Source of the DNA: an uncultured Acidobacteriota bacterium
GTDB taxonomy: Bacteria > Acidobacteriota > Vicinamibacteria > Fen-336 > JAGNNV01
Reading direction: 5' to 3'
DNA: 34,193 nt
Assembly: GCA_964494295.1 (NCBI GenBank)
Contig: CAZBTT010000002.1
Span: forward strand, 1 to 34,193
Position numbers and translations under genes: made by a program. Under the pieces are notes generated by a model. That model saw nothing but the letters and a program-made list of their open reading frames with translations, was not told the origin of the DNA and did no database searches. This document shows positions 959 to 34,193 of the stretch, piece after piece. Every line of letters begins with the position of its first letter. Position 1 is the first letter of the stretch.

Positions 959-961
959 GCC

Positions 962-2896: not shown

Positions 2897-2915
2897 CGTC
2901 CTTCGGAGATCACTC

Positions 2916-3503: not shown

Positions 3504-3609
3504 GAAACCCGCGTTCTCCTGCGGTCATGCAGGAAATCCCTCAGTCGGCTCTTTCGGTCGCGGCGCAATCTACAAACGGCGCGGATCCTGCGATGAAGGT
3601 GAGGGCATT

Positions 3610-3641
3610 CCCGAGGGTTGCGCGGGGAACTGCCCCTCGGG
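3610..3641 (+). promoter_or_regulatory. GC-rich inverted repeat (CCCGAGGG ... CCCTCGGG) in the only sizeable intergenic gap of the operon
   Basis: CCCGAGGG at 3610-3617 is perfectly complementary to CCCTCGGG at 3634-3641, with a 16-nt loop. No T-tract follows. Function is unknown (RNA stability, processing or attenuation element, or nothing). Confidence 0.25.
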
Positions 3642-3672
3642 AGGTGGCCGGCATCTTGCAATCAGCCGAGGC

Positions 3673-7165: not shown

Positions 7166-7196
7166 TTCCCATGAACTCCTTCATCGGGAAAGGTCG

Positions 7197-16824: not shown

Positions 16825-17672
16825 CCCGCCTCACCCGACGCGAGCACTGGGATGCGGTGCATGCCTTCGAGAGGGCCGATGTCCGCAAGACTCCCGAAGC
16901 GGAGAAGGGCTGGGCACGCCGCGCCCTGAAGCGGCTGGTTGGAAGTCGCTTCGTCGAATACATGTCGAGTTACGACGACCATCAGATCTGGGACCTTCTC
17001 TACCGGCGTCACATGCCGCTTCCCGGGGCGAGCGTGGTGGAGATCGGAAGCGCTCCGGGCGACCATCTGGTGAAACTGAGCGAGACCTTCGGCCTGGTGC
17101 CTTACGGCATCGAATACTCGCCCGCGGGTGTTGAGGTGAACCGGCTTCTCTTCGCGAGCCGCGGTCTTGACCCGGGGAACGTCCTGGCCATGGACTTCTT
17201 CTCCGAGGAGTGCCAGGAGCAGAACCAAGAGCGCTTTGACGTGGTCGTGTCCCGCGGCTTCATCGAGCACTTCGAGGAGCCAGCGTCCGTGGTCGACCGC
17301 CACATCGATCTTCTCAAGCCGGGAGGACTCCTGGTCGTGACGATCCCGAATCTTCGAGGCGTCAACCACACGCTGACGCGTCTCTTCCACCCCGAACTCA
17401 TTCCCATGCACAACCTTTCGATCATGTCGAAAGTGTCGTTCCTCCAGCTCTTCGACACCACCCGGGTGAGGCCCCTCGTCTGCGCCTACGTCGGGACGTT
17501 CAGCTTCTATCTCTTCAATGTGAAGGAAGGCTCTCGCCTCGCCCCTCTGCTGCGTCTGTGCATGAAGGCCCAGAGTCTCTTGAACGTGGTCTTCCGGACG
17601 TGCCTCGGAGATCGGGGCGCCGAGAATCGTTTCACCAGCCCGCAGCTCATCTTCATGGGCGTCAAGAGATAG
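16812..17672 (+). CDS. Class I SAM-dependent methyltransferase
   Basis: Motif I is VVEIGSAPGD, an acidic residue follows beta-2 (YGIEYS), and the post-I/II region is FDVVVSRGFIEHF..LKPGGLLVV. The ATG overlaps the upstream gene by 13 nt. Confidence 0.8.
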   Translation: MESLTRLTRREHWDAVHAFERADVRKTPEAEKGWARRALKRLVGSRFVEYMSSYDDHQIWDLLYRRHMPLPGASVVEIGSAPGDHLVKLSETFGLVPYGIEYSPAGVEVNRLLFASRGLDPGNVLAMDFFSEECQEQNQERFDVVVSRGFIEHFEEPASVVDRHIDLLKPGGLLVVTIPNLRGVNHTLTRLFHPELIPMHNLSIMSKVSFLQLFDTTRVRPLVCAYVGTFSFYLFNVKEGSRLAPLLRLCMKAQSLLNVVFRTCLGDRGAENRFTSPQLIFMGVKR

Positions 17673-17674
17673 CC

Positions 17675-19585: not shown

Positions 19586-19590
19586 GCCCG

Positions 19591-20769
<1,179 letters not shown>

Positions 20770-20800
20770 GCATCAAGATCCTGTGCGTCGTCGGGAGCGC

Positions 20801-21961
20801 ATGAGATCCGAGGCAGAAATGTCGGCAACGCCGCGCGCGCGCCTGGAAGATCGCCTCGAGGTGGAAGAACTGGGCTCGATGGTCGCCTTCCTGGCCCTCG
20901 AATCCGAGTGGAACGCGCTCGTCGAAGCCAGCGTCGCCTTGCCGTTCCTCCGCCACGAGTGCATACGAGCCTGGCTCTTCAACTTCGCACCCGCCTCGCG
21001 GCTCGCGATCCTGATTGCACGAGACCAGGGCGGGAACCTCGTCGCCGCCCTTCCACTGGTCCTGGAGCGGGGCTTTGTCTGCGGCCTGCCCGCCCGACAG
21101 CTGGTGGCCGCGGCCAACACGCACTCCTCAAGGTTCGACCTCATCGCCCTGGACCCGCGGAACGCCGGCCGCGCCTTCCTCGACTATCTGGTCCAAAGGC
21201 CGGGCTGGGACCTCCTGCGGATCATCGATGTGCACGAAGGGGGCGCGGCCTGGCAGATGTACCGCGCGGCCGAGGAGCTGGGGCTTCCGGTGGGGGCCTG
21301 GGAGGGAGAGCGCAGCCCGTATCTCGCCTTTCCCTCCACTTACGAGGAACTGCTCGCGACCAAGAGTCCGGCGTTTCGGGCGAACCTCCGCCGTCGTCGC
21401 CGGCAACTCGAGAAAGCCGGAGTCCTGACCCTGGAACGTGTCACCAGCCGCGAGGGCCTGATCGAGCGACTCGACGAAGGCCTGGCACTCGAGCGCAGCG
21501 GTTGGAAGGGAAGGCGGGGCACCGCGATCGCGCAGGACAAGCGAACGCGCGATTTCTACACCGATGTCGCGAAGGCCGCGGCTCTTCACGGCTACCTGTC
21601 GCTCTTCTTTCTGCGCCTCGACGGCCGGCCCATCGCGTTTCACTTTGGCCTGGTGCACGACGGCATCTACTCAGTGCCGAAGCTCGCCTACGACGAAGCG
21701 CTTCGGGGCGCGAGTCCGGGCCTCGTGCTGGTGGAAGAGGTGATCAAGGACGGCATCTCGCGCGGATTGCGCGGGTACGACTTTCTGGGCGCCGAGGCCG
21801 AGTGGAAGAACAAATGGAGCTCGAGCGTGCGGCCGAACCACTGGCTCTTCATCTTTCGCGACACGCTCCTCGGACGCGCGCTGCGCAGGGCGAAGTTCGG
21901 CTGGCTGCCCGCGGCCCGGCGCGTCCTTCAAGGCGTCGAGAAGATGGGAGCGGCGGAATGA
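20801..21961 (+). CDS. GNAT-fold CelD/FemAB-related protein (copy 2)
   Basis: Close paralog of copy 3 (shared ...SRFDLIA/...LRFDLLT, GWKGRRG/GWKGRQR, YDFLGAEAEWKNKWSSSVRPNHWLFIFRD versus FDFLGCDLPWKLEWTSTVRPHYWLFIFRD). Start is ATG 20801 or ATG 20819. Confidence 0.8.
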   Translation: MRSEAEMSATPRARLEDRLEVEELGSMVAFLALESEWNALVEASVALPFLRHECIRAWLFNFAPASRLAILIARDQGGNLVAALPLVLERGFVCGLPARQLVAAANTHSSRFDLIALDPRNAGRAFLDYLVQRPGWDLLRIIDVHEGGAAWQMYRAAEELGLPVGAWEGERSPYLAFPSTYEELLATKSPAFRANLRRRRRQLEKAGVLTLERVTSREGLIERLDEGLALERSGWKGRRGTAIAQDKRTRDFYTDVAKAAALHGYLSLFFLRLDGRPIAFHFGLVHDGIYSVPKLAYDEALRGASPGLVLVEEVIKDGISRGLRGYDFLGAEAEWKNKWSSSVRPNHWLFIFRDTLLGRALRRAKFGWLPAARRVLQGVEKMGAAE

Positions 21962-23115
21962 GCGCGCCCCAGATCTTCGTGCCCGCGTTTCCCACCATCC
22001 AGCCGGAGATGCTGCTGGGGTTGCGGCGCGGGTCGCTCGCGGCCCGCCATCCCTTCAAGGCGCCCTCGGCTCGTCCTTTCTACTTCGCGCGAAACGCGAT
22101 ATGGCACGCGGCTTTGGCCCTCGGACTCGACGAGGGCGAGGTGGTGGTTCCGGCCTACCATCACGGGGTCGAGATCGAAGCTCTCCTCGACGCGGGCGCC
22201 CGGCTGCGGTTTTATGCAGTCGGACCGAGGTTCGAGATCGACCTCGAGGAAGTCGAACGTCTCATCGGACCGGAAACGAAAGCGCTTTACCTCACGCACT
22301 TCCTCGGCTTCCCGGGTCCGGTTCGCGCCATGAAAGCGCTCGCGGTGAAGCACCGCCTTCCCCTCATCGAGGACTGTGCTCTGGCCCTCTTCTCTGCCGA
22401 CGGCGACCTCCCCCTCGGCGTTACCGGCGACGTGTCGATCTTCTGTCTCTACAAGGTCCTCGCCGTTCCCGATGGCGGACTGCTCGTCCATCCGGAAGGG
22501 GAGAGAGGGATGGCACAGAAGGGTCCGCGCCCGCCCCTCGCCTCGAGTGTCGCGGCCGTGACCTCCTCGACGCTGCGCAACGTCGCGCTCCGGGGCGGCA
22601 GAGTCGGACGAGGCCTGCGAGCCCTGGTCCTGGGCCTGGGCCACGGCGCGCTCAAAGCCTCGAAGGTGAAACCCGTTCTGGCCGGCACGCAGTTCTTCAA
22701 TCGTGATCATGCGCATCTTGGGATGAGCCGCTTCACCGAGCATCTGCTCGGGGGCCAGGATGTGCCAGGGATCATCGAACGCCGACGCCGTAACTACCTC
22801 TACCTGCTCGAGCGTCTCCGCGATGTGTCGCCGCCTCTCTTCGACGAGCTTCCACCCGGCGTGGTGCCGCTGTGTTATCCGATGCTCGTCTTTGACAACC
22901 GCGCTTTCATGGAAGAGCTCGTGGGCCGGGGGATCGAGGCCGTCGATTTCTGGCGTGAGGGTCACCCGGCCTGTGATGTCTCCCGTTTCCCCGAGGTGGC
23001 CCGGCTGCGCCGAAGCCTCGTGGAGATTCCCTGCCACCAGGACGTCGACCTCGAAACACTCTCGGTCATGGTGGGTGTGATTCGCGACGTTCTGCAACGT
23101 CACCCGAGGGCGTGA
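21958..23115 (+). CDS. DegT/DnrJ/EryC1/StrS-like PLP-dependent aminotransferase-fold protein
   Basis: ARNAIWHAALALGLDEGEVVVPAYHHGVEIEAL, LIEDCALALFS, and a candidate Schiff-base lysine in DVSIFCLYKVLAVPDGGLLV. ATGA overlap with the upstream gene. Confidence 0.72.
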   Translation: MSAPQIFVPAFPTIQPEMLLGLRRGSLAARHPFKAPSARPFYFARNAIWHAALALGLDEGEVVVPAYHHGVEIEALLDAGARLRFYAVGPRFEIDLEEVERLIGPETKALYLTHFLGFPGPVRAMKALAVKHRLPLIEDCALALFSADGDLPLGVTGDVSIFCLYKVLAVPDGGLLVHPEGERGMAQKGPRPPLASSVAAVTSSTLRNVALRGGRVGRGLRALVLGLGHGALKASKVKPVLAGTQFFNRDHAHLGMSRFTEHLLGGQDVPGIIERRRRNYLYLLERLRDVSPPLFDELPPGVVPLCYPMLVFDNRAFMEELVGRGIEAVDFWREGHPACDVSRFPEVARLRRSLVEIPCHQDVDLETLSVMVGVIRDVLQRHPRA

Positions 23116-24260
23116 TGGCCACCGAGGACCTCAAGGAACTCTCCGCCTTCTCCATCATCCGCGACGACTGGAATGGCCTCGTGGACGCGAGCGACCCCCA
23201 GCCTTTCTACCGCCACGAATACATCAAGGCGTTCATGGCGAACTTCCTCGAGGGAGCGCCGCTCGAAGTAGTGACCGTGCGCGACTCGTCGGGCCGGTTG
23301 ACCGCAGCCCTTCCCCTTGCCGTCGGGCGTGGCTCGATCTGCGGCATCGGCACGCGCGAACTGGCCTCGCCAACCAATGTCCACTCGCTGCGCTTCGACC
23401 TCTTGACCGCAGCGGGAACGGAGCCTCTGATCGATGAGGCCGCGCACGTCGTGTTCCAACATCTGGCCGCAGACAAACGCTGGGATGTTCTGAGACTCAC
23501 GGACATCCCGGAAGGCGGCAAGGCCTGGCGTGTGTATGCGGCGGCCCAGACGGCCGGATTTCCGGTGGGGGCCTGGAAGTCCCAGTGCAGTCCTTACATT
23601 GCACTTCCCGATTCGCAGGATGCCCTGATGAACCGTCTGAGCGCCAAGTTCAGGGCAAACCTGCGGCGGCGCAGGAAACGCCTCGCCGAGAATGGGGAAA
23701 TCACGTTCGAGCGTCTCTCGGGAACCGCCTTATCGCCCCACCATCTGGACGAGTCCCTGGTCATGGAGTCCGGTGGCTGGAAGGGTCGCCAGAGAAGTGC
23801 GGTGAACCAGAGCGAGGCCAGCCACGGCTTCCATCGAGAACTGTTTCTGGACCCGGAATACCGGGAGCGGCTCTCGCTCTTCCGCCTGAAGCTTCAAGGC
23901 CAGCCGATCGCATTCCAGTACGGAATCACGACGAACGACGTGTTTTCGCTGGTGATGACCAGCTATGACGAGTCTTTCTCAGCATTTAGTCCAGGTCATC
24001 TCCTCACCGAGGACGTGCTCAAGGACTGTGTGTCCCGCGGGCTTCGGGAGTTCGACTTCCTGGGGTGCGATCTTCCCTGGAAACTCGAGTGGACAAGCAC
24101 AGTCAGGCCACATTACTGGCTCTTCATCTTCCGGGACAGCGCGCGTGGACGTTTGCTTCGGAAGATCAAGTTCTCGTGGGTCCAAACGGCCCGCCAATTG
24201 CTTACAAAGTGGCGTATGCCTGCGTTGCCCAATCCTCGCCTGCCGAGGGTATCCCAGTGA
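23112..24260 (+). CDS. GNAT-fold CelD/FemAB-related protein (copy 3)
   Basis: See copy 2. GTG 23112 (GTGA overlap) or ATG 23115. Ends in a GTGA overlap with the next gene. Confidence 0.8.
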   Translation: MMATEDLKELSAFSIIRDDWNGLVDASDPQPFYRHEYIKAFMANFLEGAPLEVVTVRDSSGRLTAALPLAVGRGSICGIGTRELASPTNVHSLRFDLLTAAGTEPLIDEAAHVVFQHLAADKRWDVLRLTDIPEGGKAWRVYAAAQTAGFPVGAWKSQCSPYIALPDSQDALMNRLSAKFRANLRRRRKRLAENGEITFERLSGTALSPHHLDESLVMESGGWKGRQRSAVNQSEASHGFHRELFLDPEYRERLSLFRLKLQGQPIAFQYGITTNDVFSLVMTSYDESFSAFSPGHLLTEDVLKDCVSRGLREFDFLGCDLPWKLEWTSTVRPHYWLFIFRDSARGRLLRKIKFSWVQTARQLLTKWRMPALPNPRLPRVSQ

Positions 24261-26992
24261 CGAGCCTGCTCGTCGTCCTGATGGCCGCGGCCCTCTCTCA
24301 GGGAAGGGTCGAGTTGCCTCGTGCCCAGGTGGATGTCGCCTACCCTGCTCTCACCGGCCGGACGATTCGCGTCGCCGCCGCGGACGACTTCCAGGCCGCG
24401 CTTGAAGCGGCGCGTCCCGGCGACGAAATCACCCTTGCCGCGGGTGCTACGTTCACGGGCCCTTTCACTCTCCCCGCAAAAACCGGAACGGGCTGGATTG
24501 TCGTGCGGTCGAACGAGAGCGGACGCCTGACCAAGGGCAAACGGGTCAGGCCCGAAGACGCGGCATTCATGCCCAAGCTCGAATCGCGTTGGGGAGCGGT
24601 GATCAGCGCGGAGAGCGGGTCGCATCACTTCCGCTTCGTGGGCATGGAGATAAGGCCGGCTCAGAATGCATTCCTCACGAACGTCGTTCTGTTGGGATCC
24701 CGGGAAACCGTGCTGTCCGAAGTCCCCCACCACTTCGTTATCGATCGCTGTTTCATCCACGGGGACCCGGTTCGCGGTTCGCGCCGCGGCGTTGCCCTTG
24801 GATCGGAGGAAACCGCGGTCATCGACTCTTGGATTTCGGATTTCAAGGAGGGGACGGCCGACTCTCAGGCGATCGCGGGTTGGAACGGGCCCGGTCCCTA
24901 CCGTATCGAGAACAACTATCTCGAGGGCGCCGGTGAGAACCTGATGTTCGGCGGCGCCGACCCGCGGGTGCAGGGCCTCGTGCCCTCCGATATCGAGATC
25001 CTCCGGAACCACTTCAAGAAACCGCTCACCTGGAAGACCGGCGACCCGGCCTACGGGGGCGCCAAGTGGACGATCAAGAACCTGCTCGAACTCAAGAACG
25101 CGCGGCGCGTTCTGATCGCTGGGAATCTCTTCGAGCAGAACTGGGTCGCCGCGCAGAGTGGTTTCGCCATTCTCTTCACGGTCCGGAACCAGGACGGCAA
25201 GTCCCCCTGGTCGGTCGTGGAAGACGTCACCTTTGAGCACAACGTCATCCGCCACAGCGCTTCCGGCGTCAACATCCTCGGTCAGGACGATGCCGCCCCG
25301 AGCGGGCGCACCGCGCGCATCGCTATTCGCAACAATCTCTTCGAGGATATCGGCGGCGATCGCTGGGGAGGAGGCGGGCGACTCTTCCAGATTCTGCAGG
25401 GAGCCCGGGACGTGTCCATCGAGCACAACACCGCGCTCCAGACCGGCAGCATCGTGATGGCCGAGGGTCCGCCGAATCCAGGCTTCGTGTACAGAGACAA
25501 CATCGCGCCGCATAACGCGCAGGGCATTGTGGGCACCGGCGTCTCCTCGGGCCTCCCCACGCGCGCGGCCTTCTTCCCGGATGGGGTGTTCCGTCGGAAT
25601 GTGATCGCGGGCGGCGAGGCTTCGAACTATCCGCCCGACAACTTCTTCCCGGATTCGCTCGAGGACGTGGGTTTCGTGAACCGTAAGAGCCGCGACTATC
25701 GATTGAGCCCTTCGAGTCTCTACAGGCGGGCTGCGAGCGATGGGTCCGATGTGGGCGTCAACTACGAGAAGCTGCGTGACGCCCTTTCCGCAGCCACCGC
25801 TGCGCCGGCTCAGGGTGCGCTGATCGATCCGGCCGGCTCGGCTGAAACCGGACCCTGGATGACGCAATCGGTGTTCTGGCTATCGGTGTTGCTCCTCGGC
25901 TACGCGAACGTGGGTTATCCGGCCCTGCTGCTCCTTTGGGCTCGCGTGCGTCCCCGGCCGTTTCGGAAGGGGACACTCGAGCCGCGCGTGACCATGGTCA
26001 TCGCCGCCCACAATGAGCAGGGGGCGATCGGGGCCCGCCTGAACAACGTCCTCTCCCTCGACTATCCGAAGGATCGCTTCGATATCCTGCTTGGCCTCGA
26101 CGGTTGCTCGGACCAGACCGCCGAAGTCGCGCGCTTCCATGAAAGCGAGCGGGTCCGTGTTGTCGAGTTCGAGACCCGGCGCGGGAAACCGAGCGTCCTC
26201 AACGCGCTCCTGCCCATGGCGGGCGGGGACATCGTGGTGTTTGGAGACGCGCGGCAAAGATACGGCCGCGGCGCGCTCAAAGCTCTCGTGGCCCCTTTCG
26301 CGGACCCCGAAGTCGGGGCGGTGACGGGCGAACTGATCCTGACTGCGGGCGAGGGCCGGCCGCTCGAGAAGGGTCTGGGTCTCTACTGGCGAGTAGAGAA
26401 GGCGATTCGTCGCAGCGAGAGTGAAGTGGGTTCCGTAGTGGGGGCTACGGGCGCCATCTATGCGATGCGTCGCGAGTTGTTCGAGCCGCTTCCGCCGGAC
26501 ACCATTCTCGATGACGTCCTCGCTCCGATGCGCGTGGTCCGTCGCGGTTTCCGCGTCGTCTTCGAGCCCCTGGCCCGCGCCTACGACAAGGCGCCCACGT
26601 CCCTGGGCGGGGAGTTCGCCCGGAAGGTGCGAACGATCTCCGGAAACTTCCAGCTGTTCGCGCGCGAGCACTGGCTGCTTGGCTTCGGCAATCCGCTGCT
26701 GATCCAGACCCTGTCGCACAAGGGCCTTCGCCTGCTCACGCCGTTGCTGCTTCTGATGGCCCTTGGCGCGAATCTCTTGCTTCTCGACCGTCCTCTCTTC
26801 CAGTTGATCCTGCTGGCCCAGATTGCCTTCTACCTCACCGCGATCTTCGGACACTCCCTACGGAACCTGAAGATCCCCGGTCTCGGCGTGCCCTACGTCG
26901 TCTGCATGCTGGCAAGCGCCACCGCACTCGCCTTCTTCCGGCACGCGAGCAGCCGGCAAAAAGTGACATGGGTGAGGGAGGGAGAGGTATGA
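24257..26992 (+). CDS. Fusion protein: signal/anchor plus right-handed beta-helix (pectin-lyase-fold) domain, TM helix, synthase-like GT2 glycosyltransferase, C-terminal TM bundle
   Basis: The N-terminus VTSLLVVLMAAALSQG is hydrophobic. About 530 aa follow with beta-helix-type repeats (ARPGDEITLAAGATFTGPFTLPAKTGTGWIVVRS; NNYLEGAGENLMFGG; FEHNVIRHS; IEHNTALQ; YRDNIAPHN). From in-frame ATG 25859 comes a complete GT2: TM FWLSVLLLGYANVGYPALLLLW, VTMVIAAHNE, LGLDGCSDQT, VFGDARQ, GATGAIYAMRRELF, FARKVRTISGNFQ, then about 3 C-terminal TM helices. Confidence 0.82.
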   Translation: MTSLLVVLMAAALSQGRVELPRAQVDVAYPALTGRTIRVAAADDFQAALEAARPGDEITLAAGATFTGPFTLPAKTGTGWIVVRSNESGRLTKGKRVRPEDAAFMPKLESRWGAVISAESGSHHFRFVGMEIRPAQNAFLTNVVLLGSRETVLSEVPHHFVIDRCFIHGDPVRGSRRGVALGSEETAVIDSWISDFKEGTADSQAIAGWNGPGPYRIENNYLEGAGENLMFGGADPRVQGLVPSDIEILRNHFKKPLTWKTGDPAYGGAKWTIKNLLELKNARRVLIAGNLFEQNWVAAQSGFAILFTVRNQDGKSPWSVVEDVTFEHNVIRHSASGVNILGQDDAAPSGRTARIAIRNNLFEDIGGDRWGGGGRLFQILQGARDVSIEHNTALQTGSIVMAEGPPNPGFVYRDNIAPHNAQGIVGTGVSSGLPTRAAFFPDGVFRRNVIAGGEASNYPPDNFFPDSLEDVGFVNRKSRDYRLSPSSLYRRAASDGSDVGVNYEKLRDALSAATAAPAQGALIDPAGSAETGPWMTQSVFWLSVLLLGYANVGYPALLLLWARVRPRPFRKGTLEPRVTMVIAAHNEQGAIGARLNNVLSLDYPKDRFDILLGLDGCSDQTAEVARFHESERVRVVEFETRRGKPSVLNALLPMAGGDIVVFGDARQRYGRGALKALVAPFADPEVGAVTGELILTAGEGRPLEKGLGLYWRVEKAIRRSESEVGSVVGATGAIYAMRRELFEPLPPDTILDDVLAPMRVVRRGFRVVFEPLARAYDKAPTSLGGEFARKVRTISGNFQLFAREHWLLGFGNPLLIQTLSHKGLRLLTPLLLLMALGANLLLLDRPLFQLILLAQIAFYLTAIFGHSLRNLKIPGLGVPYVVCMLASATALAFFRHASSRQKVTWVREGEV

Positions 26993-27987
26993 GCCTCGTC
27001 CTCCAACGCCCGGATGGCACGGTCGAGATCGAGGAGCGCGCGGGCACGACGCGCCTTGTGACCGCTCGTCCGAAGGGGAGCGCTTCCCTCTCCTGCTCGA
27101 CCACCTATCCCATCGATCTCATCGAAGCGATCCTTGACGTCAAGGGCGCGGCGTGGGTGTGCGATGAGATCACCCGCGATCAGGACCCCGAATCGATCCA
27201 GCGCTTCTTCGAGAACGACTTTCTGCCCTACGTCAGCGCCGCGGAATTCGAAGGGAAGAGAGTGCTTGATTTCGGGTGCGGGTCGGGCGCCTCCACGATG
27301 GTCCTCGCCCGGATGTTCCCACGCTCGCGCATCGTCGGGATTGAACTCTCGCCGGAGTACCTCGACCTCGCACGAAGGAGACTGCGGTTCTACGGATACG
27401 GAAACGTCGAGTTTCTCCTCTCGCCCTCCGGCACGAGTCTGCCCGAGGGCCTCGGTCAGTTCGACTTCATCGTGATGAGCGCGGTGTTCGAACATCTCCT
27501 GCCGGACGAGCGCCGAACGATCATGCCGCGATTGTGGTCTCACCTGGCGCCCGGAGGCCGGCTGCTCCTCAATCAGACGCCCCATCGCTTCTTCCCCTTC
27601 GAGAGACACACCACGGGTCTGCCCTTCATCAACTATCTGCCCGACCGCGTCGCGCACTTCGTTTCGCGCCGTTTCTCCAACCGTTCGCTCGAACGGGAAT
27701 CCTGGGAGTCCCTGCTGAGAAAAGGGATCCGGGGCGCCACCGAACGCGAAATCCTCGCGAGTCTGGGGCCGTTGGCGAGCGGCGCACTCGTGGCGCCTCG
27801 GCAACCCGAGTATCGCGACCGCGTCGACGTCTGGTACGCGGCTCTCGGACCGCGGCATCGGCCGATGAAGGCCGCCGTCCGAGAGATGCTGCGCGTGGTC
27901 GAACGCGTGTCTGGCACCACGCTGGTCGTCAACCTGGCCCTTGCGATCTCCAAGGCCCCGGGCGTTCCGCGAGAGGCCCGCGTATGA
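26989..27987 (+). CDS. Class I SAM-dependent methyltransferase
   Basis: Motif I is VLDFGCGSGAST, then IVGIELS, then FDFIVMSAVFEHL..LAPGGRLLL. ATGA overlaps on both sides. Confidence 0.82.
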   Translation: MSLVLQRPDGTVEIEERAGTTRLVTARPKGSASLSCSTTYPIDLIEAILDVKGAAWVCDEITRDQDPESIQRFFENDFLPYVSAAEFEGKRVLDFGCGSGASTMVLARMFPRSRIVGIELSPEYLDLARRRLRFYGYGNVEFLLSPSGTSLPEGLGQFDFIVMSAVFEHLLPDERRTIMPRLWSHLAPGGRLLLNQTPHRFFPFERHTTGLPFINYLPDRVAHFVSRRFSNRSLERESWESLLRKGIRGATEREILASLGPLASGALVAPRQPEYRDRVDVWYAALGPRHRPMKAAVREMLRVVERVSGTTLVVNLALAISKAPGVPREARV

Positions 27988-29123
27988 AAGCACCCCGCCA
28001 GACGACTCGAAATAGACAGTGTTCGATGCCCGACAAGGCCGCGGAGCTTGCCCACCTGCTCGCCGGCACACGCCGTCCGCTTCGCCGGGCCCTCGAACTG
28101 CTGAGCCGTGACGCTCGCCGCGTGACGCGCGCGTTCCGCTCTCTCCTCCGGACGCTCGAACCGAGTCGCGACGCTTACACCACGCTCCTCGCTCCGGATC
28201 TCCTGTCGTGTTACACGTTTCTGCTGGCCCAAGGTCCGGTAACTGCGCGGGGAGATGAAGCCTTTTGCCTTGCGGTGGAGCGGGCGGCCCTCACCCTGGT
28301 GCGCTCCGGCGTGCCTGAAAACCACGCAACCGCGGTGGTTGGACTTCATCTCGAAGCCTGTCTTGCCTCGCTGCCGGGCGCCGCGGAAGCCCGCGCGGCG
28401 GCCCGCCTCAGTTCAGCGACCCAGTGGCTGGTGGCGGCCGCGTATTGCGAGGGACGGGTAGAGGGACTCCGGCGCCTCGACGACCAGGAGCGTCAGAAAC
28501 TCTCAGGCGACCTCCATGACGAGGTCGGCGCCGATCTGGTTGTGCTGAAGCTGTACGTCGAGATGATCGCCTCCGAGCTGGCCCGCGGTCGCCGCACCCC
28601 GCTCGGACCGAAGCTCGAAGAGGCCCTGGCCCTCATCGCCCATGCCATCGAGTCGGTGCGGCGCCTCACCCTTGACCTCGGTCCCGCCTTCCTCGACACC
28701 CTCGGCTTCATACCCGTTCTTCGAAACTTCGTCCGTCAGTATTCGCGGCGGACCGGCATCAAGGTGACCCTCGTGGAGCCCGATGCGAAAGTCTCGATGC
28801 CCCCGGGGCATGAAGCGGCGCTCTACCGTATCCTCCTGGGCGCCCTGTCGAACGTCGCGAAGCACGCGCACGCGCGCCGCGCGAGAGTGACGCTTCGCAG
28901 CGCCTCCAACACCTTCTTCATGGTGGTCGAGGATGACGGGAGAGGCTTCGATGTCCGGGCGCAGCGTCCCGATCACACCTTCGGAATCAACGCGATGCGG
29001 GAGAGGATCCACGGCCTGCACGGTCACCTCAAGGTCAGCTCGAGGCGAAAGGACCGCCCTGGCTCCCGATCGGGAACGCGCCTCGAGATCCGGCTTCCCC
29101 TGCGCAAAGGAACGATGTCGTGA
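27984..29123 (+). CDS. Sensor histidine kinase, HisKA_3/NarX-type, with no predicted TM segment
   Basis: H-box LSGDLHDEVGADLVVLKL, N-box LLGALSNVAKHAHA, G1 VEDDGRGF, G2 region FGINAMRERIHGLHGHLKV..SGTRLEIRLPL. The N-terminal ~165 aa are helical and Ala/Arg/Leu-rich with no 20-residue hydrophobic stretch. ATG 27984 (ATGA overlap). ATG 28026 is an alternative start. Confidence 0.85.
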   Translation: MKAPRQTTRNRQCSMPDKAAELAHLLAGTRRPLRRALELLSRDARRVTRAFRSLLRTLEPSRDAYTTLLAPDLLSCYTFLLAQGPVTARGDEAFCLAVERAALTLVRSGVPENHATAVVGLHLEACLASLPGAAEARAAARLSSATQWLVAAAYCEGRVEGLRRLDDQERQKLSGDLHDEVGADLVVLKLYVEMIASELARGRRTPLGPKLEEALALIAHAIESVRRLTLDLGPAFLDTLGFIPVLRNFVRQYSRRTGIKVTLVEPDAKVSMPPGHEAALYRILLGALSNVAKHAHARRARVTLRSASNTFFMVVEDDGRGFDVRAQRPDHTFGINAMRERIHGLHGHLKVSSRRKDRPGSRSGTRLEIRLPLRKGTMS

Positions 29124-30700
29124 ATCCCAGGATCCGCGTCCTCCTTTGCGACGATCACCCGCTTCTTCGCGAGGGTCTGCGCGCCATTCTGCGCGAGCAC
29201 CCGGGCTTCGAGGTCGTGGGCGAAGCGAAGAACGGACTCGAAGCGGTCAGCCAGTTTCGGACCCTTCGACCGGACGTGGCCCTGATGGATATCGACATGC
29301 CGGAGCTGTCGGGGCTCGAAGCCACCAAGCGCATTGTCGAGGCCCGACTGCCCGGGAAAGTGCTGATCCTCAGTTTGTACGATGACGAAGACCTGATCGC
29401 CGGGTGCCTCGATGCGGGCGCGGTCGGCTATGTGCTGAAGGACGGGCCCACGAGCGAACTCCTCTTCGCGATCGAGGCCGCGCATCGGGGCGAGCGATAC
29501 ATGAGTCCGCGCGCTCTCTCCGTGGTCATCGAACACGCGCGCGAGGGCGGAGACAAGACGGGCACCCGCTTCGACCTCCTGACCGACCGAGAGCGCGAGG
29601 TGCTGCGGCGCCTGGCCGACGGCCACTCCAGCAAGGACATCGCTTTGAAACTGAACCTGAGCATCAAGACCGTCGAGGCCCACAAGTACAACCTGATGCG
29701 GAAGCTCGACATCCACAACCGCGCGGATCTCGTGAAATACGCGATCCGCAAGAAGCTGGTGCAGGTGGGCGCCCTTGTGCTGACCCTCGGCGCGAGCATC
29801 GTCGGCGCAGCCCTTCAGCCCTCCCCCCCCGCGCGTATCGAGGAGAACAGCGGGGCCGTGACCTGGATCGGATCGTGGTCGACCAACGCCCTGCCCCTGA
29901 ACAGCGGCGGCGGCGCCAGACTGGCGATGGACAAGGGAGCCGAGGCACGGCTCGACTTCGCGGGCACGTCCGTCGAATGGATCGGTTATCGCGATGAATG
30001 GTCGGGCCTTGCCGATGTTCTCGTCGACGGTGAGTTCCAGGCCACGATCGACACGTTCGCGAAACCCGCCCAGGCGCAGGCGACGCTTTTCCGGGCTCGC
30101 GGCCTGCGCGAGGGCCGCCACACTCTCGCCATCAGGCCCCGGGGAGATCATCAGAAAGACTCCAGGGGTGCGTGGGTGTGGGTGGATGCCTTCATCGTTG
30201 GAGAGTCGCGAGAAGACTCAACTCCCCTTGACCGCCCGGTCGCGCAGAGCCGCCGCGACCGGCAGGCAAACCGGGATCCGGACCGACGGGGGACCTCTCG
30301 CCGCGAGACCGGCGCCCCGCGGATACAGGTCGATCAGGAGGACGAGGCCGTGACATGGGCGGGCTCCTGGTCCACGAACAGACTCCCGGTTCATCGCGGG
30401 CGCAGCGCCCGACTCGCCATGGAGAGCACGTCTTCGGTGTCCCTGACCTTCACCGGCACCGGGGTGAGCTGGATCGGCTACCGCGACGAGTGGTCGGGAA
30501 TCGCCGAAGTCCTTCTCGACGGAAGACACCGCGCCACCGTGGACACCTATTCGAAGGCCGCCCGGGGTCAAGTGGAGCTCTACACCGTCGATGGTCTCCG
30601 CGACGGGCCCCACACCCTGACCATTCAACCCACGAGCCGCAAAAGTCCCATGTCGGGCGGGGCATGGATCTGGGTGGACGGATTCCTGATCACACGCTGA
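29120..30700 (+). CDS. NarL/FixJ-type response regulator (REC + LuxR HTH) fused in frame to a hydrophobic helix and two tandem ~120-aa CBM-like beta-sandwich repeats
   Basis: REC residues: DD at 11-12, D57 in DVALMDIDMP, S85, K107. LuxR HTH: LTDREREVLRRLADGHSSKDIALKLNLSIKTVEAHKYNLMRKL. The frame then continues with IRKK-LVQVGALVLTLGASIVGAAL and two repeats, each with the (S/A)WIGYRDEWSG(L/I)A and GAW(V/I)WVD(A/G)F signatures. GTG 29120 overlaps the HK stop (GTGA). No stop codon occurs between the HTH and the repeats. Confidence 0.85.
   Translation: MNPRIRVLLCDDHPLLREGLRAILREHPGFEVVGEAKNGLEAVSQFRTLRPDVALMDIDMPELSGLEATKRIVEARLPGKVLILSLYDDEDLIAGCLDAGAVGYVLKDGPTSELLFAIEAAHRGERYMSPRALSVVIEHAREGGDKTGTRFDLLTDREREVLRRLADGHSSKDIALKLNLSIKTVEAHKYNLMRKLDIHNRADLVKYAIRKKLVQVGALVLTLGASIVGAALQPSPPARIEENSGAVTWIGSWSTNALPLNSGGGARLAMDKGAEARLDFAGTSVEWIGYRDEWSGLADVLVDGEFQATIDTFAKPAQAQATLFRARGLREGRHTLAIRPRGDHQKDSRGAWVWVDAFIVGESREDSTPLDRPVAQSRRDRQANRDPDRRGTSRRETGAPRIQVDQEDEAVTWAGSWSTNRLPVHRGRSARLAMESTSSVSLTFTGTGVSWIGYRDEWSGIAEVLLDGRHRATVDTYSKAARGQVELYTVDGLRDGPHTLTIQPTSRKSPMSGGAWIWVDGFLITR
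29756..29815 (+). other. Candidate transmembrane helix (or cryptic signal-peptide core) inside the response-regulator ORF
   Basis: LVQVGALVLTLGASIVGAAL has 20 uncharged residues apart from one Gln. It is preceded by IRKK (positive-inside) and followed by QPSPPAR. Confidence 0.55.
29840..30202 (+). other. CBM-like repeat 1 of the response regulator
   Basis: ENSGAVTWIGSWSTN...ARLDFAGTSVEWIGYRDEWSGLADVLVDG...GRHTLAIRP...GAWVWVDAFIV. Aligns along its full length with repeat 2 and with 33135..33515 (- strand). Confidence 0.7.
30332..30697 (+). other. CBM-like repeat 2 of the response regulator
   Basis: EAVTWAGSWSTN...SLTFTGTGVSWIGYRDEWSGIAEVLLDG...GPHTLTIQP...GAWIWVDGFLITR. Confidence 0.7.
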
Positions 30701-33084
30701 TGTGGGAACTGCGCGCCCTCTTTTCCTTGTGGGGCCTCACGCTTGCCCCGGACGCGCTGGTTCTCGACTCGGGAGTCCACCTGCCGGTGCTCTACGACTC
30801 CTTCGTGCCTCCCGCCCTCGGCCAGACCTACGTGGACCAGACCTTCAGCACCACCATCAAACGCCTCTCTGATGCGGTGAACACTCCAAACCATGCGGCG
30901 AGCGGCAACCTCCTGTGGATTGGCACGGAATACCCGACCGCCTCGCCCTGGAACGTCAACAACAGCTGGCTGATCCTCCAGCACCAGGGCTACTTCGGCC
31001 TCTACGACGGCGGTGGAACCTACGTTCGCGACCTCCCCTTCTCCGTGAATGCCGCGACCGAGCCGCGCTGGTCGCGCACCGACCCGAACGTCCTTTTCTA
31101 CGTGAGCGGGAACAGGCTCATGCGGCTCGATGTTTCCGCGGGTGCGTCCTCTATCGTCCGGACCTTCAGCGAATACTCGGCGATTCGCGGCCGCGGCGAG
31201 TCGGACATCAGCCGGGACGGCGATCACTTCGTGTTTGCCGGAGATGCCCCCGGCGGCCTCGCCAACCGGTATGTGTTCGTCTACCAGATCAGCACGAATA
31301 CGAAGGGCGCGGTCCTCGACACCATCGGTCACTCCTTCAACCAGCTCTACCTCGCCTCGGACAACAGCGTGGCACTTGGATGGATCGCGGCCGGGACCGC
31401 CCGTTATAGCGGCGTCGAACTCTTCGACCGCAACATGATCTTTCAGCGTCAGCTCACCCGGGCGATCGGGCACATGCGCCTGACCCGCGACACGAACGGC
31501 GCCGATGTGCTGATCTGGACGAACTCGGGCGATCCGCAACCGATTCCAAATTGCCAGAATGGGATCGTCAAGGTGCGGCTGTCGAACGCTCAACAGACCT
31601 GCCTGCTTCAACTCGATTGGAGTCTCGCGGTCCACATCACCGCCGGAGACGGAGACGGATGGGCCTTCGTGGAGACCTACGATCCGGCTGATCCGCCCGC
31701 GTCCACCCCCGCCTGGAAGCCCTACACGAACGAGATTATTCAGGTGAAGCTCGATGGGACCGAGGCTCGAAGACTGCTCCACCACCGCAGCCGTCAGACC
31801 GCAAACTACGAATACCAGCCCCGGGCCACGGTCAGCCGCGACGGCACGACCCTCGTCTACTCGAGCACGTATAACCTCGAGGGGACGAGCGGCCACGCCT
31901 TCGGATACACGGATGCGTACATGATCGCCGTTCCCGGATCTCCGACTCCACAACTCTCGATCGCAGACGTAACCGCGCACGAGGGTACGGGCGCTACGAC
32001 CATGGTCTTCACGGTCAGGCTTTCGCATATCACCGACGTGCCGGTGAGCGTCCAGTACCAGACGGCGAACGGCACCGCGACCGCCGGAAGCGACTACACC
32101 GCGGCCGGTCCCCTGACGTTGACCTTCCCCCCTCTGACCGCCAGCCGGACGTTCTCCATCACCCTCCTGGGTGACCATGTGATCGAGCCCGATGAGACGT
32201 TTCATGTGAATCTTTCGAACCCGACGAATGCGACCCTCTCGGATCCGTCCGGCCTCGGGACGATCATCAACGATGACTCCACGCGCGTGTTCGTGGCGCA
32301 CTCCGGCGACGATGCCGGCCTTTGCTCGAACATAGCCACGCCCTGTCGGAGCCTGGCCGGGGCGATGACCCAGGCAGCCGAGAACGGAGAAATCATCGTG
32401 ATGACCTCGGGCGAATACGAAACCGCTCCCCTGGTGATCACAAGGGGTGTCGCGGTTTCCGCGTCCCTCGGCGCCGTCGTGCTCATTCGCCAGCCGATCA
32501 CCCTAGCCGCCCCGGGAGCGCGCGTTGTCTTGCGTGGCCTGACCCTCAAGGGAGCAGGGGTGTCAACCGCTCTCACGCTCACCGCGGGGCACACTTTGTC
32601 TCTTGAAGACAGCTCGATCGAACGCTGGAACGTCGGCTTCAGGATCGCCAACACAACCGGGGCGCGCGTGATCGTCTCGAATGTGGTCTTCCGCGGCAAC
32701 GGGTCGGGCATCAACGACGACGGAGGGCCCGCGGGAAATCGCGTGGCGGTCGAGGAAACGCGGTTTGAGGGCAATCTCAACGGAATCGACGTCTGGAGCG
32801 GCGCCTTCGTCGTGCGTGAGTCCGCATTCGTCGGGAACAGCGGAAACGGCGTCGTGGCGGGTCCCGGAACGGTTCAAGTCCACCGGAGCGAGTTCGCTTT
32901 CAACACCACCGGTGTCAGGACGCGCGCCTCTGGAACCGCGCGAATCAGCGGATGCCGGGTCTTCGGCAACGCGACCGGACTCTGGGCCGAGGCCTCGAGC
33001 AGCCTCGTGACCGCGGGCGGAAACGGCATCCGCGGTAACGGCGTCAACACTCAGGGCGTGATCACAGCCGCGCCGGCGCAGTAG
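30700..33084 (+). CDS. Large multidomain protein: PD40/TolB-like propeller-type N-domain, Calx-beta domain, and right-handed beta-helix C-domain
   Basis: N-domain has repeated 'S(R/P)DG..lvf'-type blades (ISRDGDHFVFAG, VSRDGTTLVYSS, DPNVLFYVSGNRLMRLD). Calx-beta spans 31951..32277 (LSIADVTAHEGTGATTMVFTVRLS..VSVQYQTANGTATAGSDYT..DHVIEPDETFHVNLSNP). C-domain has DUF1565/beta-helix-like repeats (TPCRSLAGAMTQAAENGEIIVMTSGEY; FRGNGSGI; FEGNLNGI; FVGNSGNGV; FGNATGL; IRGNGVN). ATG 30700 shares 1 nt with the RR stop. The N-terminal signal peptide is weak or uncertain. Confidence 0.8.
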   Translation: MWELRALFSLWGLTLAPDALVLDSGVHLPVLYDSFVPPALGQTYVDQTFSTTIKRLSDAVNTPNHAASGNLLWIGTEYPTASPWNVNNSWLILQHQGYFGLYDGGGTYVRDLPFSVNAATEPRWSRTDPNVLFYVSGNRLMRLDVSAGASSIVRTFSEYSAIRGRGESDISRDGDHFVFAGDAPGGLANRYVFVYQISTNTKGAVLDTIGHSFNQLYLASDNSVALGWIAAGTARYSGVELFDRNMIFQRQLTRAIGHMRLTRDTNGADVLIWTNSGDPQPIPNCQNGIVKVRLSNAQQTCLLQLDWSLAVHITAGDGDGWAFVETYDPADPPASTPAWKPYTNEIIQVKLDGTEARRLLHHRSRQTANYEYQPRATVSRDGTTLVYSSTYNLEGTSGHAFGYTDAYMIAVPGSPTPQLSIADVTAHEGTGATTMVFTVRLSHITDVPVSVQYQTANGTATAGSDYTAAGPLTLTFPPLTASRTFSITLLGDHVIEPDETFHVNLSNPTNATLSDPSGLGTIINDDSTRVFVAHSGDDAGLCSNIATPCRSLAGAMTQAAENGEIIVMTSGEYETAPLVITRGVAVSASLGAVVLIRQPITLAAPGARVVLRGLTLKGAGVSTALTLTAGHTLSLEDSSIERWNVGFRIANTTGARVIVSNVVFRGNGSGINDDGGPAGNRVAVEETRFEGNLNGIDVWSGAFVVRESAFVGNSGNGVVAGPGTVQVHRSEFAFNTTGVRTRASGTARISGCRVFGNATGLWAEASSSLVTAGGNGIRGNGVNTQGVITAAPAQ
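31951..32277 (+). other. Calx-beta domain within the 30700..33084 protein
   Basis: Canonical Calx-beta pattern: V..EG.G...F.V.LS.....V.V.Y.T.NGTA.AGSDY.......L.F.P......F.I....D...E.DE.F.V.LSNP.NA.L. Confidence 0.8.
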
Positions 33085-33114
33085 CGAGACGGCGGACCAG
33101 AGCCGCCGCCTCGC
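33084..33114. terminator. GC-rich hairpin between convergent genes (possible bidirectional terminator)
   Basis: GCGAGACGGCGG (33084-33095) pairs with CCGCCGCCTCGC (33103-33114), giving 11 pairs with one A/C mismatch around a 7-nt loop (ACCAGAG). It sits in the 47-nt gap between the + strand stop (33082-33084) and the - strand stop (33132-33134). There is no U-tract, so the intrinsic-terminator call is tentative. Confidence 0.45.
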
Positions 33115-33131
33115 TCAAGGCGTCTTCGAGA

Positions 33132-34193
33132 TCAGCGCGACACCGCGAAAGCATCCACCCAGACCCACGAGCCGGCCGCCCCCGGTCTTCGCGTGCCCGT
33201 CACCTCGATGGTGAGTGTGTGCGTGCCGTTCGACAGACCGCTGATGGTGTAGAGCGTAGCCTGCGCTACCCCGCTCGGGGCATAGGTGTCGACCGTACCC
33301 TTGACCACGCCGTCCACTCTGATCGTGGCTATACCCGACCACTCATCACGGTAGCCGACCCAGGAGGCGCCGCTTCCTGAGAACACGAAGGTGGCGGTGG
33401 ACCCTTGATCCATCGAGAGCACCGCGCTGCCGCCGCTGTTCGTCGCCCGAGCGTTGGGTGACCACGATCCCACGTAGCTCACGCTGGAGCTGTTCTGCTC
33501 GACGAGGTTGCCGCCGGCCGCGGGAGCTGGCAGGGGCGCCGGCGCCGGCGCGGGTGCGGGGGTCGGGGCCGGAGTCGTCGGCGACGTCGGAGGCGGCGTG
33601 GGCAATGGAGTCCCCGCGGGCTCGGTCGAGGGTGTCGTGGAGGAGCCCGAAACCTGGATCATGTAGGCATCGGAGTACAGGCTCGGGTAACCGAGAATCG
33701 ACTGCAGAGAATGGTTGCTCGTGAACGCGAGCCTGCTGCCGTCGCGGCTTGACGTCACCTTCGGCTGGTAGACATAGCTGTCCCCGCCGAAGGGGCGGCT
33801 GCGGTGATGAACCAGCCGACGGGTTTCCGAACCGTCGAGCTTCACCTGGAGGATCTCGTTCGCATAGGGAACCCACGCCGAGGACTGAGGGAAGGGATCG
33901 CTTGGAGCGTAGGTCTCGACGAAGGCCCAGCCGTTGCCGTCAGGGGCCGTGATGTGGACGGCGAGGCTCCAGTCGAGCTGCAGCAGGCACGTCTGCTGCG
34001 CGTCTGAGAGGCGCACCTTCACGATGCCGTTCTGGCACGCGATGGGCTGAGCGTCGGCCGAGTTGTTCCAGATGAGGACGTCCTGGCCATTGTCGACAGT
34101 GATGTCCATGTGGCCGATGGCGTGAGTCAGCTGACGCTGGAAATTCATGTTGCGATCGAAGAGCTCAACACCCTGGTACCGACTCGAGCCGTT
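33132..34193 (-). CDS. Paralog of the 30700..33084 N-domain, followed by a Pro/Thr/Ala linker and a C-terminal CBM-like domain (third copy). 5'-truncated by the window edge
   Basis: The - strand frame stays open to nt 34193. The residues upstream of the track's Met (..SSRYQGVELFDRNMNFQRQLT) align with ..TARYSGVELFDRNMIFQRQLT of the + strand protein, so the gene starts outside the window. Shared blocks include CQNGIVKVRLS(D/N)AQQTCLLQLDWSLAVHITA and GWAFVETY. The C-terminus is ...SWVGYRDEWSGIATIRVDG...GSWVWVDAFAVSR. Confidence 0.85.
   Translation of the reverse strand, partial: NGSSRYQGVELFDRNMNFQRQLTHAIGHMDITVDNGQDVLIWNNSADAQPIACQNGIVKVRLSDAQQTCLLQLDWSLAVHITAPDGNGWAFVETYAPSDPFPQSSAWVPYANEILQVKLDGSETRRLVHHRSRPFGGDSYVYQPKVTSSRDGSRLAFTSNHSLQSILGYPSLYSDAYMIQVSGSSTTPSTEPAGTPLPTPPPTSPTTPAPTPAPAPAPAPLPAPAAGGNLVEQNSSSVSYVGSWSPNARATNSGGSAVLSMDQGSTATFVFSGSGASWVGYRDEWSGIATIRVDGVVKGTVDTYAPSGVAQATLYTISGLSNGTHTLTIEVTGTRRPGAAGSWVWVDAFAVSR
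33135..33515 (-). other. CBM-like domain, third copy (C-terminus of the convergent paralog)
   Basis: Aligns without large gaps to both repeats of the response regulator and shares the WxGYRDEWSG and WVWVDAF signatures. Confidence 0.7.
33516..33644 (-). other. Pro/Thr/Ala-rich interdomain linker
   Basis: SSTTPSTEPAGTPLPTPPPTSPTTPAPTPAPAPAPAPLPAPAA, typical of linkers in secreted multidomain carbohydrate-active proteins. Confidence 0.75.

Follow-up and report, generated by a model that had tools for sequence, protein, structure and literature searches.

A response regulator of the NarL/FixJ family, encoded in a 34,193-nucleotide stretch of DNA from an uncultured Acidobacteriota bacterium (contig CAZBTT010000002.1 of assembly GCA_964494295.1; the whole of this stretch is referred to below as the window), carries at its C-terminus two copies of a predicted beta-sandwich domain that, in related genomes, belong to a separate secreted protein. 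Comparison with syntenic loci indicates that the two genes were joined by an in-frame fusion, which left a hydrophobic, predicted membrane-spanning segment between the DNA-binding domain of the regulator and the domain pair. A third copy of the domain is found in a convergent gene nearby, and all three lie at the 3' end of a cluster for exopolysaccharide (EPS) biosynthesis. The domain is related to a known superfamily but is itself new and uncurated, and the fused regulator combines known designs. Taken as a whole, the account that we favor is that the domain is akin to carbohydrate-binding modules (CBMs), that the regulator arose by fusion with the secreted protein, and that the product is a membrane-tethered regulator that senses EPS; we consider this account reasonably probable.

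Architecture of the fused regulator

The regulator is a single chain of 526 amino acids in which a receiver (REC) domain, a LuxR/GerE helix-turn-helix (HTH), a hydrophobic segment, domain copy 1, a disordered linker, and domain copy 2 follow one another in that order. Its parts, together with the third copy of the domain, are as follows (coordinates are those of the window).

29120..30700, + strand: fused regulator, 526 amino acids, a single uninterrupted open reading frame (ORF) with a GTG start
29138..29473, + strand: REC, residues 7-118 (Pfam Response_reg, E 8e-26, profile positions 1-110 of 111)
29576..29743, + strand: LuxR/GerE HTH, residues 153-208 (Pfam GerE, E 9e-21)
29756..29815, + strand: hydrophobic segment LVQVGALVLTLGASIVGAAL, residues 213-232, preceded by RKK; Kyte-Doolittle hydropathy 1.97 over 19 residues
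29840..30202, + strand: domain copy 1, predicted CE2_N-like beta-sandwich (alignment; CE2_N 19.8 bits, E 9e-4)
30203..30331, + strand: inter-copy linker of about 43 residues, of variable length; predicted local distance difference test score (pLDDT) below 50; ratio of nonsynonymous to synonymous substitution rates (dN/dS) 0.37-0.54
30332..30697, + strand: domain copy 2, predicted CE2_N-like beta-sandwich (alignment; CE2_N 20.5 bits, E 5e-4)
33135..33515, - strand: domain copy 3, at the C-terminus of the convergent gene (alignment; CE2_N 14.3 bits)

As read from the translation, the REC pocket is intact (D11, D12, D57, S85, and K107), and the best NCBIfam matches over residues 5-213 are MctR, UvrY, and NarL, all below the equivalog cut-offs. 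The combination of a phospho-acceptor receiver, a LuxR/GerE HTH, and an adjacent HisKA_3 kinase places the protein, as judged from its sequence, in the NarL/FixJ family. Directly after the last HTH helix come RKK and then the 20 uncharged residues of LVQVGALVLTLGASIVGAAL, whose hydropathy lies above the usual Kyte-Doolittle membrane threshold of 1.6, followed by an acidic, proline-rich stretch and copy 1. This segment was absent from an earlier, preliminary description of the window, whose account of the regulator was right as to the fold of the domain and also missed the fusion origin of the protein and its putatively lyase-like neighbors.

The repeated unit spans about 121 amino acids and is present three times, at the coordinates first given in the preliminary description, with copies 1 and 2 in the 526-residue ORF and copy 3 in the convergent one. 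The three align end to end without internal gaps, and in this alignment copies 2 and 3 show 50-52% identity to copy 1. Of its columns, 42 are invariant, among them those of the two motifs named in the preliminary description, W(I/V)GYRDEWSG and W(V/I)WVD(A/G)F. In pairwise BLASTP comparisons with copy 1, the identity is 53% for copy 2 (E 2e-47) and 51% for copy 3 (E 3e-45). The similarity among the three copies is far above chance level, and both the three copies and their signature motifs, as first described, are borne out by this gap-free alignment (50-53% identity over all comparisons).

Origin of the regulator by gene fusion

Three syntenic loci of related Vicinamibacteria (L003, L004, and L005) have the same gene order as the window and are unfused. 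In them, the regulator is 223 amino acids long and ends with ...ADLVKYAIRKKLVHVSAIVGGL and a stop codon; 12 nucleotides further on, a separate gene begins with MKHTVRRTLLGIALACSPAPPWAAAAQP... and encodes a signal peptide followed by two copies of the domain (325-344 amino acids in all). The corresponding junction in the window reads ...ADLVKYAIRKKLVQVGALVLTLGASIVGAALQPSPP... without a stop codon. Relative to the unfused orthologue in L003, the last residues of the regulator and its stop codon are lost, as are the 12-nucleotide spacer with the downstream ribosome-binding site, the start codon, and the charged head of the signal peptide, whose hydrophobic core is retained as an internal membrane-type segment. 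An in-frame deletion of about 16 codons would account for the junction, and the segment is predicted to have been built from the regulator's own C-terminal tail and the core of the former signal peptide. Copies 1 and 2 thus belong to a formerly stand-alone secreted protein, whose gene normally lies directly 3' of a NarL-type response regulator, with its usual place at the 3' end of an XrtA/PEP-CTERM-like EPS biosynthesis operon. In one further unfused locus (L006), an extra gene of 224 amino acids (9330..10004), with no family match, stands between the regulator and the two-domain gene.

The same fused frame is found in six further sequences (P0002-P0005, P0386, and L008). The ORF of L008 encodes 556 amino acids on a contig of a Vicinamibacteria metagenome-assembled genome (MAG), and P0003 likewise derives from a Vicinamibacteria MAG (JANNJB010000268). 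A search of 5.8 billion proteins with the full-length query gave no fused protein below 81% identity, and a query comprising the HTH, the membrane segment, and the first domain gave no other protein combining an HTH with the domain among its top 150 matches in 1.84 billion representatives, a set from which the known fused cluster itself is absent and which therefore leaves room for other fusions. The one HTH-region match of that search (P0317) is a protein of 2854 amino acids with 14 tandem GerE HTHs; it lacks the domain and is unrelated to the locus. This limit of 81% identity points to one recent event in a single narrow clade of Vicinamibacteria, and the domain pair of the regulator is, on the comparative evidence, the product of a recent, clade-restricted, in-frame fusion with the gene of a separate secreted protein.

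Both halves of the fused protein are under purifying selection. By the Nei-Gojobori method, among the window, L001, and L008, dN/dS is 0.03-0.05 for REC plus HTH, 0.13-0.17 for copy 1, and 0.14-0.17 for copy 2, as against 0.37-0.54 for the inter-domain linker and about 0.5-1.2 for the membrane segment and linker; dS over the structured domains is 0.3-0.65. These low values in both halves imply that both are maintained by selection. It is accordingly very improbable indeed that the fusion reflects an assembly or sequencing error or a decaying pseudogene, or that the two-domain part is made separately from an internal start. All the sequences come from metagenome assemblies, and in-frame GTG codons at V213 and V215 are preceded by a purine-rich AAGAAG. 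However, the fusion recurs in seven distinct sequences from different samples and assemblers, and with dN/dS at 0.03-0.17 we reject both the artifact and the pseudogene. As for an internal start, the regulator has no stop codon, so that it would always carry the extension; a signal peptide beginning at V213 or V215 would have no positive head; and AAGAAG merely encodes a conserved Lys-Lys that is also present in unfused regulators. Having lost its own start signals, the two-copy part must be made within the long chain.

Fold and relationships of the domain

The C-terminal 312 residues of the regulator were modeled by AlphaFold2 with an alignment of 91 sequences. The model consists of two all-beta sandwiches (mean pLDDT 86.9, above 90 inside both domains), with the strands of copy 1 at construct residues 24-147 (pLDDT >90), those of copy 2 at residues 187-311, and a disordered inter-domain linker (pLDDT <50 at residues 153-174). 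When compared with the PDB by Foldseek, its neighbors include the Paenibacillus xanthan lyase 6f2p (E 2e-11), the C-terminal domain of the glycoside hydrolase BT_2959 (3nqh, among the best matches), the xanthan-binding module MiXBM (7ehg, target-normalized TM-score 0.69 over about 140 columns), the CE2-like acetyl-mannan esterase 6hh9, and modules of the CBM51 and CBM35/6 types, with a weaker match to an RsgI-type sensor domain (6qdi). Over the full domain, it matches carbohydrate-binding modules or accessory modules of carbohydrate-active enzymes (CAZymes) best. The modeled sandwiches and these jelly-roll neighbors together support, with high confidence, a discrete predicted beta-sandwich fold of the kind seen in CBMs. 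The jelly-roll, galactose-binding-like fold proposed in the preliminary description thus agrees with the model, and the Pfam search and structure prediction with Foldseek that it had suggested as checks gave a relative of CE2_N and a beta-sandwich, respectively.

At the sequence level, the domain is 14-21% identical to its structural matches. A profile search of PDB sequences returned only 3nqh (E 8e-5) and marginal matches to the N-domain of GlfT2; neither 7EHG nor 6F2P was recovered by it at E <= 10. The sole Pfam family matched is CE2_N (PF17996), which is recovered at E <= 0.01 with every one of the 91 two-copy homologues (lowest E 4e-13); for the two-copy regulator, the score rises to 33.9-35.8 bits, but only when its two stretches are summed. 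CE2_N is the N-terminal jelly-roll of the family 2 carbohydrate esterases and belongs to the galactose-binding-like superfamily. The domain of the window resembles it in its predicted beta-sandwich fold, in the Pfam match, and in having the CE2-like esterase 6hh9 among its structural matches. It differs in that no SGNH-type CE2 esterase domain, such as would stand downstream of CE2_N, was found in the three window proteins or in the homologues listed, and in being C-terminal or stand-alone and often tandem. A second likeness is to CBM84, the xanthan-binding family that includes MiXBM and the xanthan lyase module, whose members bind bacterial exopolysaccharide and are attached to lyases (PMC10881899). 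Members of CBM84 are among the best structural matches (6f2p and 7ehg), yet the identity is only 14-20%, with no sequence-level match in the PDB profile search. The most fitting description of the domain is therefore that of an uncurated jelly-roll family of the galactose-binding-like group, with CE2_N as a distant relative.

The polysaccharide locus and its two-component system

The window has a G+C content of 65%, and its + strand is almost wholly a Wzx/Wzy-type EPS biosynthesis cluster (134..26989). The cluster encodes two AsnB-type amidotransferases, a chain-length determinant, a tyrosine autokinase, a priming sugar transferase, a Wzy-like polymerase, GT4 and GT2 glycosyltransferases, three FemAB-like acetyltransferases, a deacetylase (an ORF in which deacetylase and GT4 are fused), methyltransferases, and a heparinase II/III-like protein (14284..16824, + strand). 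The best NCBIfam matches of these genes are to families of the XrtA/PEP-CTERM system, nearly all below the trusted cut-offs, and neither an exosortase gene nor a PEP-CTERM tail was seen within the window; for these two reasons we call the cluster only XrtA-like. The genes that follow it are listed below.

27984..29123, + strand: histidine kinase, 379 amino acids, ATG start (Pfam HisKA_3, HATPase_c)
30700..33084, + strand: downstream protein, 794 amino acids, whose ATG overlaps the stop codon of the regulator; no copy of the repeated domain
30700..~31950, + strand: predicted PL22-like beta-propeller of the downstream protein, ~415 amino acids (AlphaFold2 and Foldseek)
~31957..32277, + strand: Calx-beta domain of the downstream protein (Pfam)
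~32629..33045, + strand: right-handed beta-helix of the downstream protein (Pfam Beta_helix, NosD)
33132..34193, - strand: convergent gene, cut by the contig end; frame open to base 34193

Stop and start codons overlap between the last methyltransferase and the kinase (ATGA, 27984..27987), between the kinase and the regulator (GTGA, 29120..29123), and between the regulator and the propeller gene (TGATG, 30698..30702). Chained in this way, the four genes of the 3' end are indicated to form one operon, and translation of the two-component system appears to be coupled to that of the last part of the polysaccharide biosynthesis operon. The kinase has its best NCBIfam matches among partners of NarL, and the kinase-regulator pair is kept in relatives. 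With a maximum hydropathy of 1.39, the kinase has no membrane segment, and its N-terminal ~165 amino acids (27984..28480) gave no family match. Because this partner is soluble, the fused ectodomain would be the system's only direct view of the outside. The sharing of one binding module between a regulator and its neighbors had earlier been likened to the regulators of polysaccharide utilization; the logic of that comparison carries over, but the context here is a polysaccharide biosynthesis cluster, not a utilization locus.

The propeller family and the distribution of the domain

The two genes beyond the regulator encode related proteins. The part of the convergent gene that lies within the window comprises the C-terminal half of a propeller paralogue (33636..34193), a linker rich in proline, threonine, and alanine, and domain copy 3, and its product is 67% identical over 187 amino acids to residues 232-416 of the 794-residue protein. 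The convergent gene had been taken for a complete ORF of 338 amino acids; since its frame is open to base 34193, it is instead truncated by the contig end, and full-length orthologues in L003 and L006 have 572-583 amino acids. In L001, the closest fused MAG relative, the gene of the 794-residue protein has been deleted except for its first 25 codons (11605..11679), and the convergent propeller-domain gene comes straight after this remnant. The 47-nucleotide gap between the convergent genes in the window (33085..33131) contains a short GC-rich inverted repeat, GGCGG...CCGCC, with no T-run, and a terminator and promoter scan of the interval found nothing.

The propeller was likewise modeled by AlphaFold2 (pLDDT 90.1; predicted TM-score, pTM, 0.88). 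Foldseek ranks the oligogalacturonate lyases of family PL22 first (3pe7 and 3c5m, E 6e-14, TM-score 0.59-0.67 over the whole domain), with generic WD40 propellers next at 1e-9 to 1e-10, four orders of magnitude worse. A family assignment at the sequence level was tried and rejected, as the propeller has no Pfam match at E <= 1 and no match among PDB sequences; the fold search alone yielded matches. The family (homologues P0121-P0240) comprises at least 668 protein clusters without a Pfam match and displays an invariant LHHRSR motif along with many invariant His, Arg, Asp, and Glu residues. The likeness to PL22 thus consists of the predicted seven-bladed fold, the best PDB match to the N-domain of about 410 amino acids. 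The differences are that PL22 enzymes are cytoplasmic, whereas homologues in the propeller family mostly have signal peptides, and that the family has no sequence-level match to PL22. On the predicted fold, the propeller is a putative lyase and may represent a new polysaccharide lyase family. The neighbors, previously described as enzyme- or adhesin-like proteins, are not generic adhesins, and at the level of fold they share this PL22-like propeller.

The domain itself extends well beyond the window. A search with the two-copy region gave 244 proteins, nearly all of them stand-alone proteins of ~270-350 amino acids whose N-terminus is a typical signal peptide. When one genome per species was scanned, 80 loci were obtained, nearly all in Acidobacteriota (Vicinamibacteria, Bryobacterales, Terriglobia, and Thermoanaerobaculia) and a few in NC10, Rokubacteria, and others. 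By tblastn with the window proteins, the propeller is present in 45 of 79 domain loci; in 25 of the 79, it immediately precedes two copies on the same strand and so forms one protein with them. Propeller homologues measure ~410-430 amino acids alone, ~570-590 with one copy, and ~690-720 with two, the last being flagged as PF17996; other homologues carry Calx-beta/DUF5648, DUF4214, or fn3 in place of the domain. Copy 3 is such an appendage on a propeller paralogue. In the 1.84 billion representatives, the domain is found in 355 clusters at 50% identity (E <= 1e-30), in proteins of up to 5149 amino acids with up to 14 copies (both maxima belong to P0241, a database protein), where its partners include Laminin_G_3, fn3, Calx-beta, beta-helix, and RGI-lyase-type domains. 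In Acidobacteriota, the domain thus occurs mainly in three forms: as one or two copies C-terminal on the propeller, as a pair in a secreted protein of its own, and in multiple copies in giant secreted proteins. As far as these architectures tell, its spread is the behavior of an accessory binding module. Further, a regulator of 47-56% identity lies within 6 kb in 16 unfused domain loci, usually with the kinase, and this partial co-occurrence of the two-component system with propeller and domain genes in other Acidobacteriota lends independent support to a functional link.

These observations bear on what the domain binds. That it is appended to the putative lyase-like propeller in hundreds of proteins suggests that it acts like a CBM, and the idea that it binds glycan fits with a putative polysaccharide lyase bearing the module within a polysaccharide locus. 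An alternative is that the domain has a nonglycan role, in protein-protein contact, in cell-surface adhesion, or as a structural spacer, and that its likeness to CBMs is confined to the fold. Jelly-rolls serve many functions, and domains of Cry/Vip toxins and a viral capsid protein are also among the Foldseek matches; identity to the structural matches is low, single copies score below the Pfam cut-off, and the giant proteins with up to 14 copies beside fn3, Laminin_G_3, and Calx-beta recall adhesins. We nonetheless consider this alternative quite improbable, given that the best full-domain matches are carbohydrate-binding or CAZyme accessory modules, that the domain has repeatedly been attached to the PL22-like propeller, that it is located in polysaccharide biosynthesis loci, and that Trp, Tyr, Asp, and His abound among its invariant positions, much as they do in sites that bind sugars.

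Predicted topology, proposed sensing, and the meaning of the fusion

The ancestors of the two-copy part were exported, RKK precedes the hydrophobic segment, and an acidic, proline-rich stretch follows it. On these grounds, the segment is most likely a signal-anchor or membrane helix, with a predicted N-in/C-out topology, and its position between the HTH and the domains means that any sensing by the latter would take place outside the cytoplasm. The segment stays hydrophobic in all fused members. Its strictly hydrophobic run measures 17 residues in five of the six fused proteins examined and 10 in P0005, where an Asn interrupts it; the median run among unfused signal peptides (n = 81) is 13. 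A longer hydrophobic run favors an uncleaved anchor over a cleaved signal, although as a test between the two the length of the run is only suggestive. Within the segment, regulator residues 222-230 (window 29783..29809) contain a small-xxx-small pattern, A224xxxG228. It is present in five of the six fused proteins whose sequences were retrieved, in the form AxxxS in P0003, and is missing from P0004, where Ala at both 223 and 224 gives AxxxV. Such a pattern may favor helix-helix packing or may merely reflect the small residues found near signal-peptide cleavage sites.

Under the account favored here, the hydrophobic core would insert as an N-in/C-out anchor, tethering the REC-HTH part at the inner face of the membrane and exposing the two beta-sandwiches outside the cytoplasm. 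There they would bind glycan, the likeliest candidate being the polysaccharide that the adjacent cluster produces. The bound polymer could modulate the regulator, for example by promoting its clustering or dimerization through the last HTH helix, which is directly continuous with the membrane segment, and this input would act together with phosphorylation of D57 by the soluble kinase to place the operon under feedback control. A sensing module shared in this way between the regulator and its neighbors is plausible. The most specific version of the account, a "ToxR-like response regulator", is one that we advance only tentatively. It would be a membrane-resident protein that integrates D57 phosphorylation with EPS occupancy of its own tandem domains, with the multivalent polymer clustering it via the membrane helix, giving product feedback without a transmembrane kinase; the fusion would then be a "Rosetta stone" for the system.

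The fusion might instead be merely tolerated, an accidental deletion having joined two cotranscribed genes whose products each keep their old job without any coupling. In a variant of this explanation, signal peptidase I may cut after the segment, so that the two-domain protein is freed and the regulator keeps a membrane tail. All fused proteins indeed have a small-residue, AxA-like site (GAA|LQ or SGA|IQ) after the segment, equivalent to the A-x-A|Q site of the unfused homologues; moreover, the membrane segment and linker, at a dN/dS of 0.5-1.2, are nearly neutral, the fusion is confined to one narrow clade, and the two proteins are separate chains in all other lineages. Yet the frame has remained intact through a dS of ~0.3-0.65 in seven distinct sequences, the segment is hydrophobic throughout, and its run of 17 residues (20 uncharged), against the median of 13, favors an uncleaved anchor. 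Even if it were cut, the regulator would stay tethered to the membrane, which is itself a functional change. We therefore regard mere tolerance as rather unlikely.

Several further observations weigh against a membrane-tethered, glycan-sensing regulator. The single copies of the window score 14-20 bits on CE2_N, under its curated gathering cut-off of 27.9 bits. The known fused proteins are all at least 81% identical to the query and all derive from metagenomes. Eight of the 81 unfused signal peptides have hydrophobic runs of 18 residues or more, so that the run of the fused proteins falls within their range, and conservation of the signal-peptidase site (GAA|LQ in the window) means that the halves might be cut apart. 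Finally, no linker separates the HTH from the membrane segment, which may hinder DNA binding.

Comparison with known sensors and implications

Parallels to the membrane-tethered, EPS-sensing arrangement proposed above may be drawn with three kinds of known sensor. ToxR and CadC demonstrate that DNA can be located and bound by a regulator tethered to the membrane (PMC5430869, PMC6320335, PMC7888679). They have a cytoplasmic N-terminal DNA-binding domain, one membrane helix, and an extracytoplasmic C-terminal sensor, a layout predicted here as well, and the hydropathy of 1.97, the preceding RKK, and the descent of the segment from a signal peptide all fit it. However, ToxR and CadC have a winged helix of the OmpR type, no receiver domain, and a cytoplasmic linker, whereas the fused regulator combines a full REC with a LuxR-type HTH, has a partner kinase, and passes from HTH to membrane segment with no linker. 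The second parallel is with the RsgI anti-sigma factors of cellulolytic clostridia, which sense polysaccharide outside the cell through a CBM (PMC10328401, PMC4711584) and in which, as predicted here, one membrane helix connects a regulatory N-terminus in the cytoplasm to the binding module outside. In contrast to the regulator described here, RsgI has in the cytoplasm an anti-sigma domain, which holds SigI, in place of a DNA-binding response regulator, its signaling proceeds via autoproteolysis, and it senses substrates for degradation rather than the product of biosynthesis.

The third parallel is with the hybrid two-component systems (HTCS) of Bacteroides, which join an extracytoplasmic glycan sensor, a receiver, and an HTH in one membrane protein, so that DNA is bound by a part that functions despite its tether (PMC3404733, PMC3243724). 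An HTCS runs from sensor through membrane segment, kinase, and REC to AraC HTH, with the kinase in the same chain; the fused regulator runs from REC through LuxR HTH and membrane segment to sensor, and its kinase is a separate, soluble protein. No paper on membrane-bound, membrane-anchored, or transmembrane response regulators was found in the library searched, which is weak evidence of their absence.

Independently of the fusion, the analysis brings out two large unannotated families in the polysaccharide loci of Acidobacteriota, namely, the CE2_N-like putative binding module and the PL22-like propeller. Response regulators are, by the textbook, soluble proteins informed only by their kinase. 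A membrane-anchored regulator with a full receiver and its own extracytoplasmic ligand-binding domains would, if the proposal is true, represent a new wiring of two-component systems, in which the logic of ToxR/CadC and RsgI is joined to a phosphorelay. It would also imply that the secreted two-domain protein and the two-component system share one pathway in the many Acidobacteriota in which they remain unfused. More generally, it would suggest how the abundant uncultured Acidobacteria of soils monitor their own exopolysaccharide matrix.

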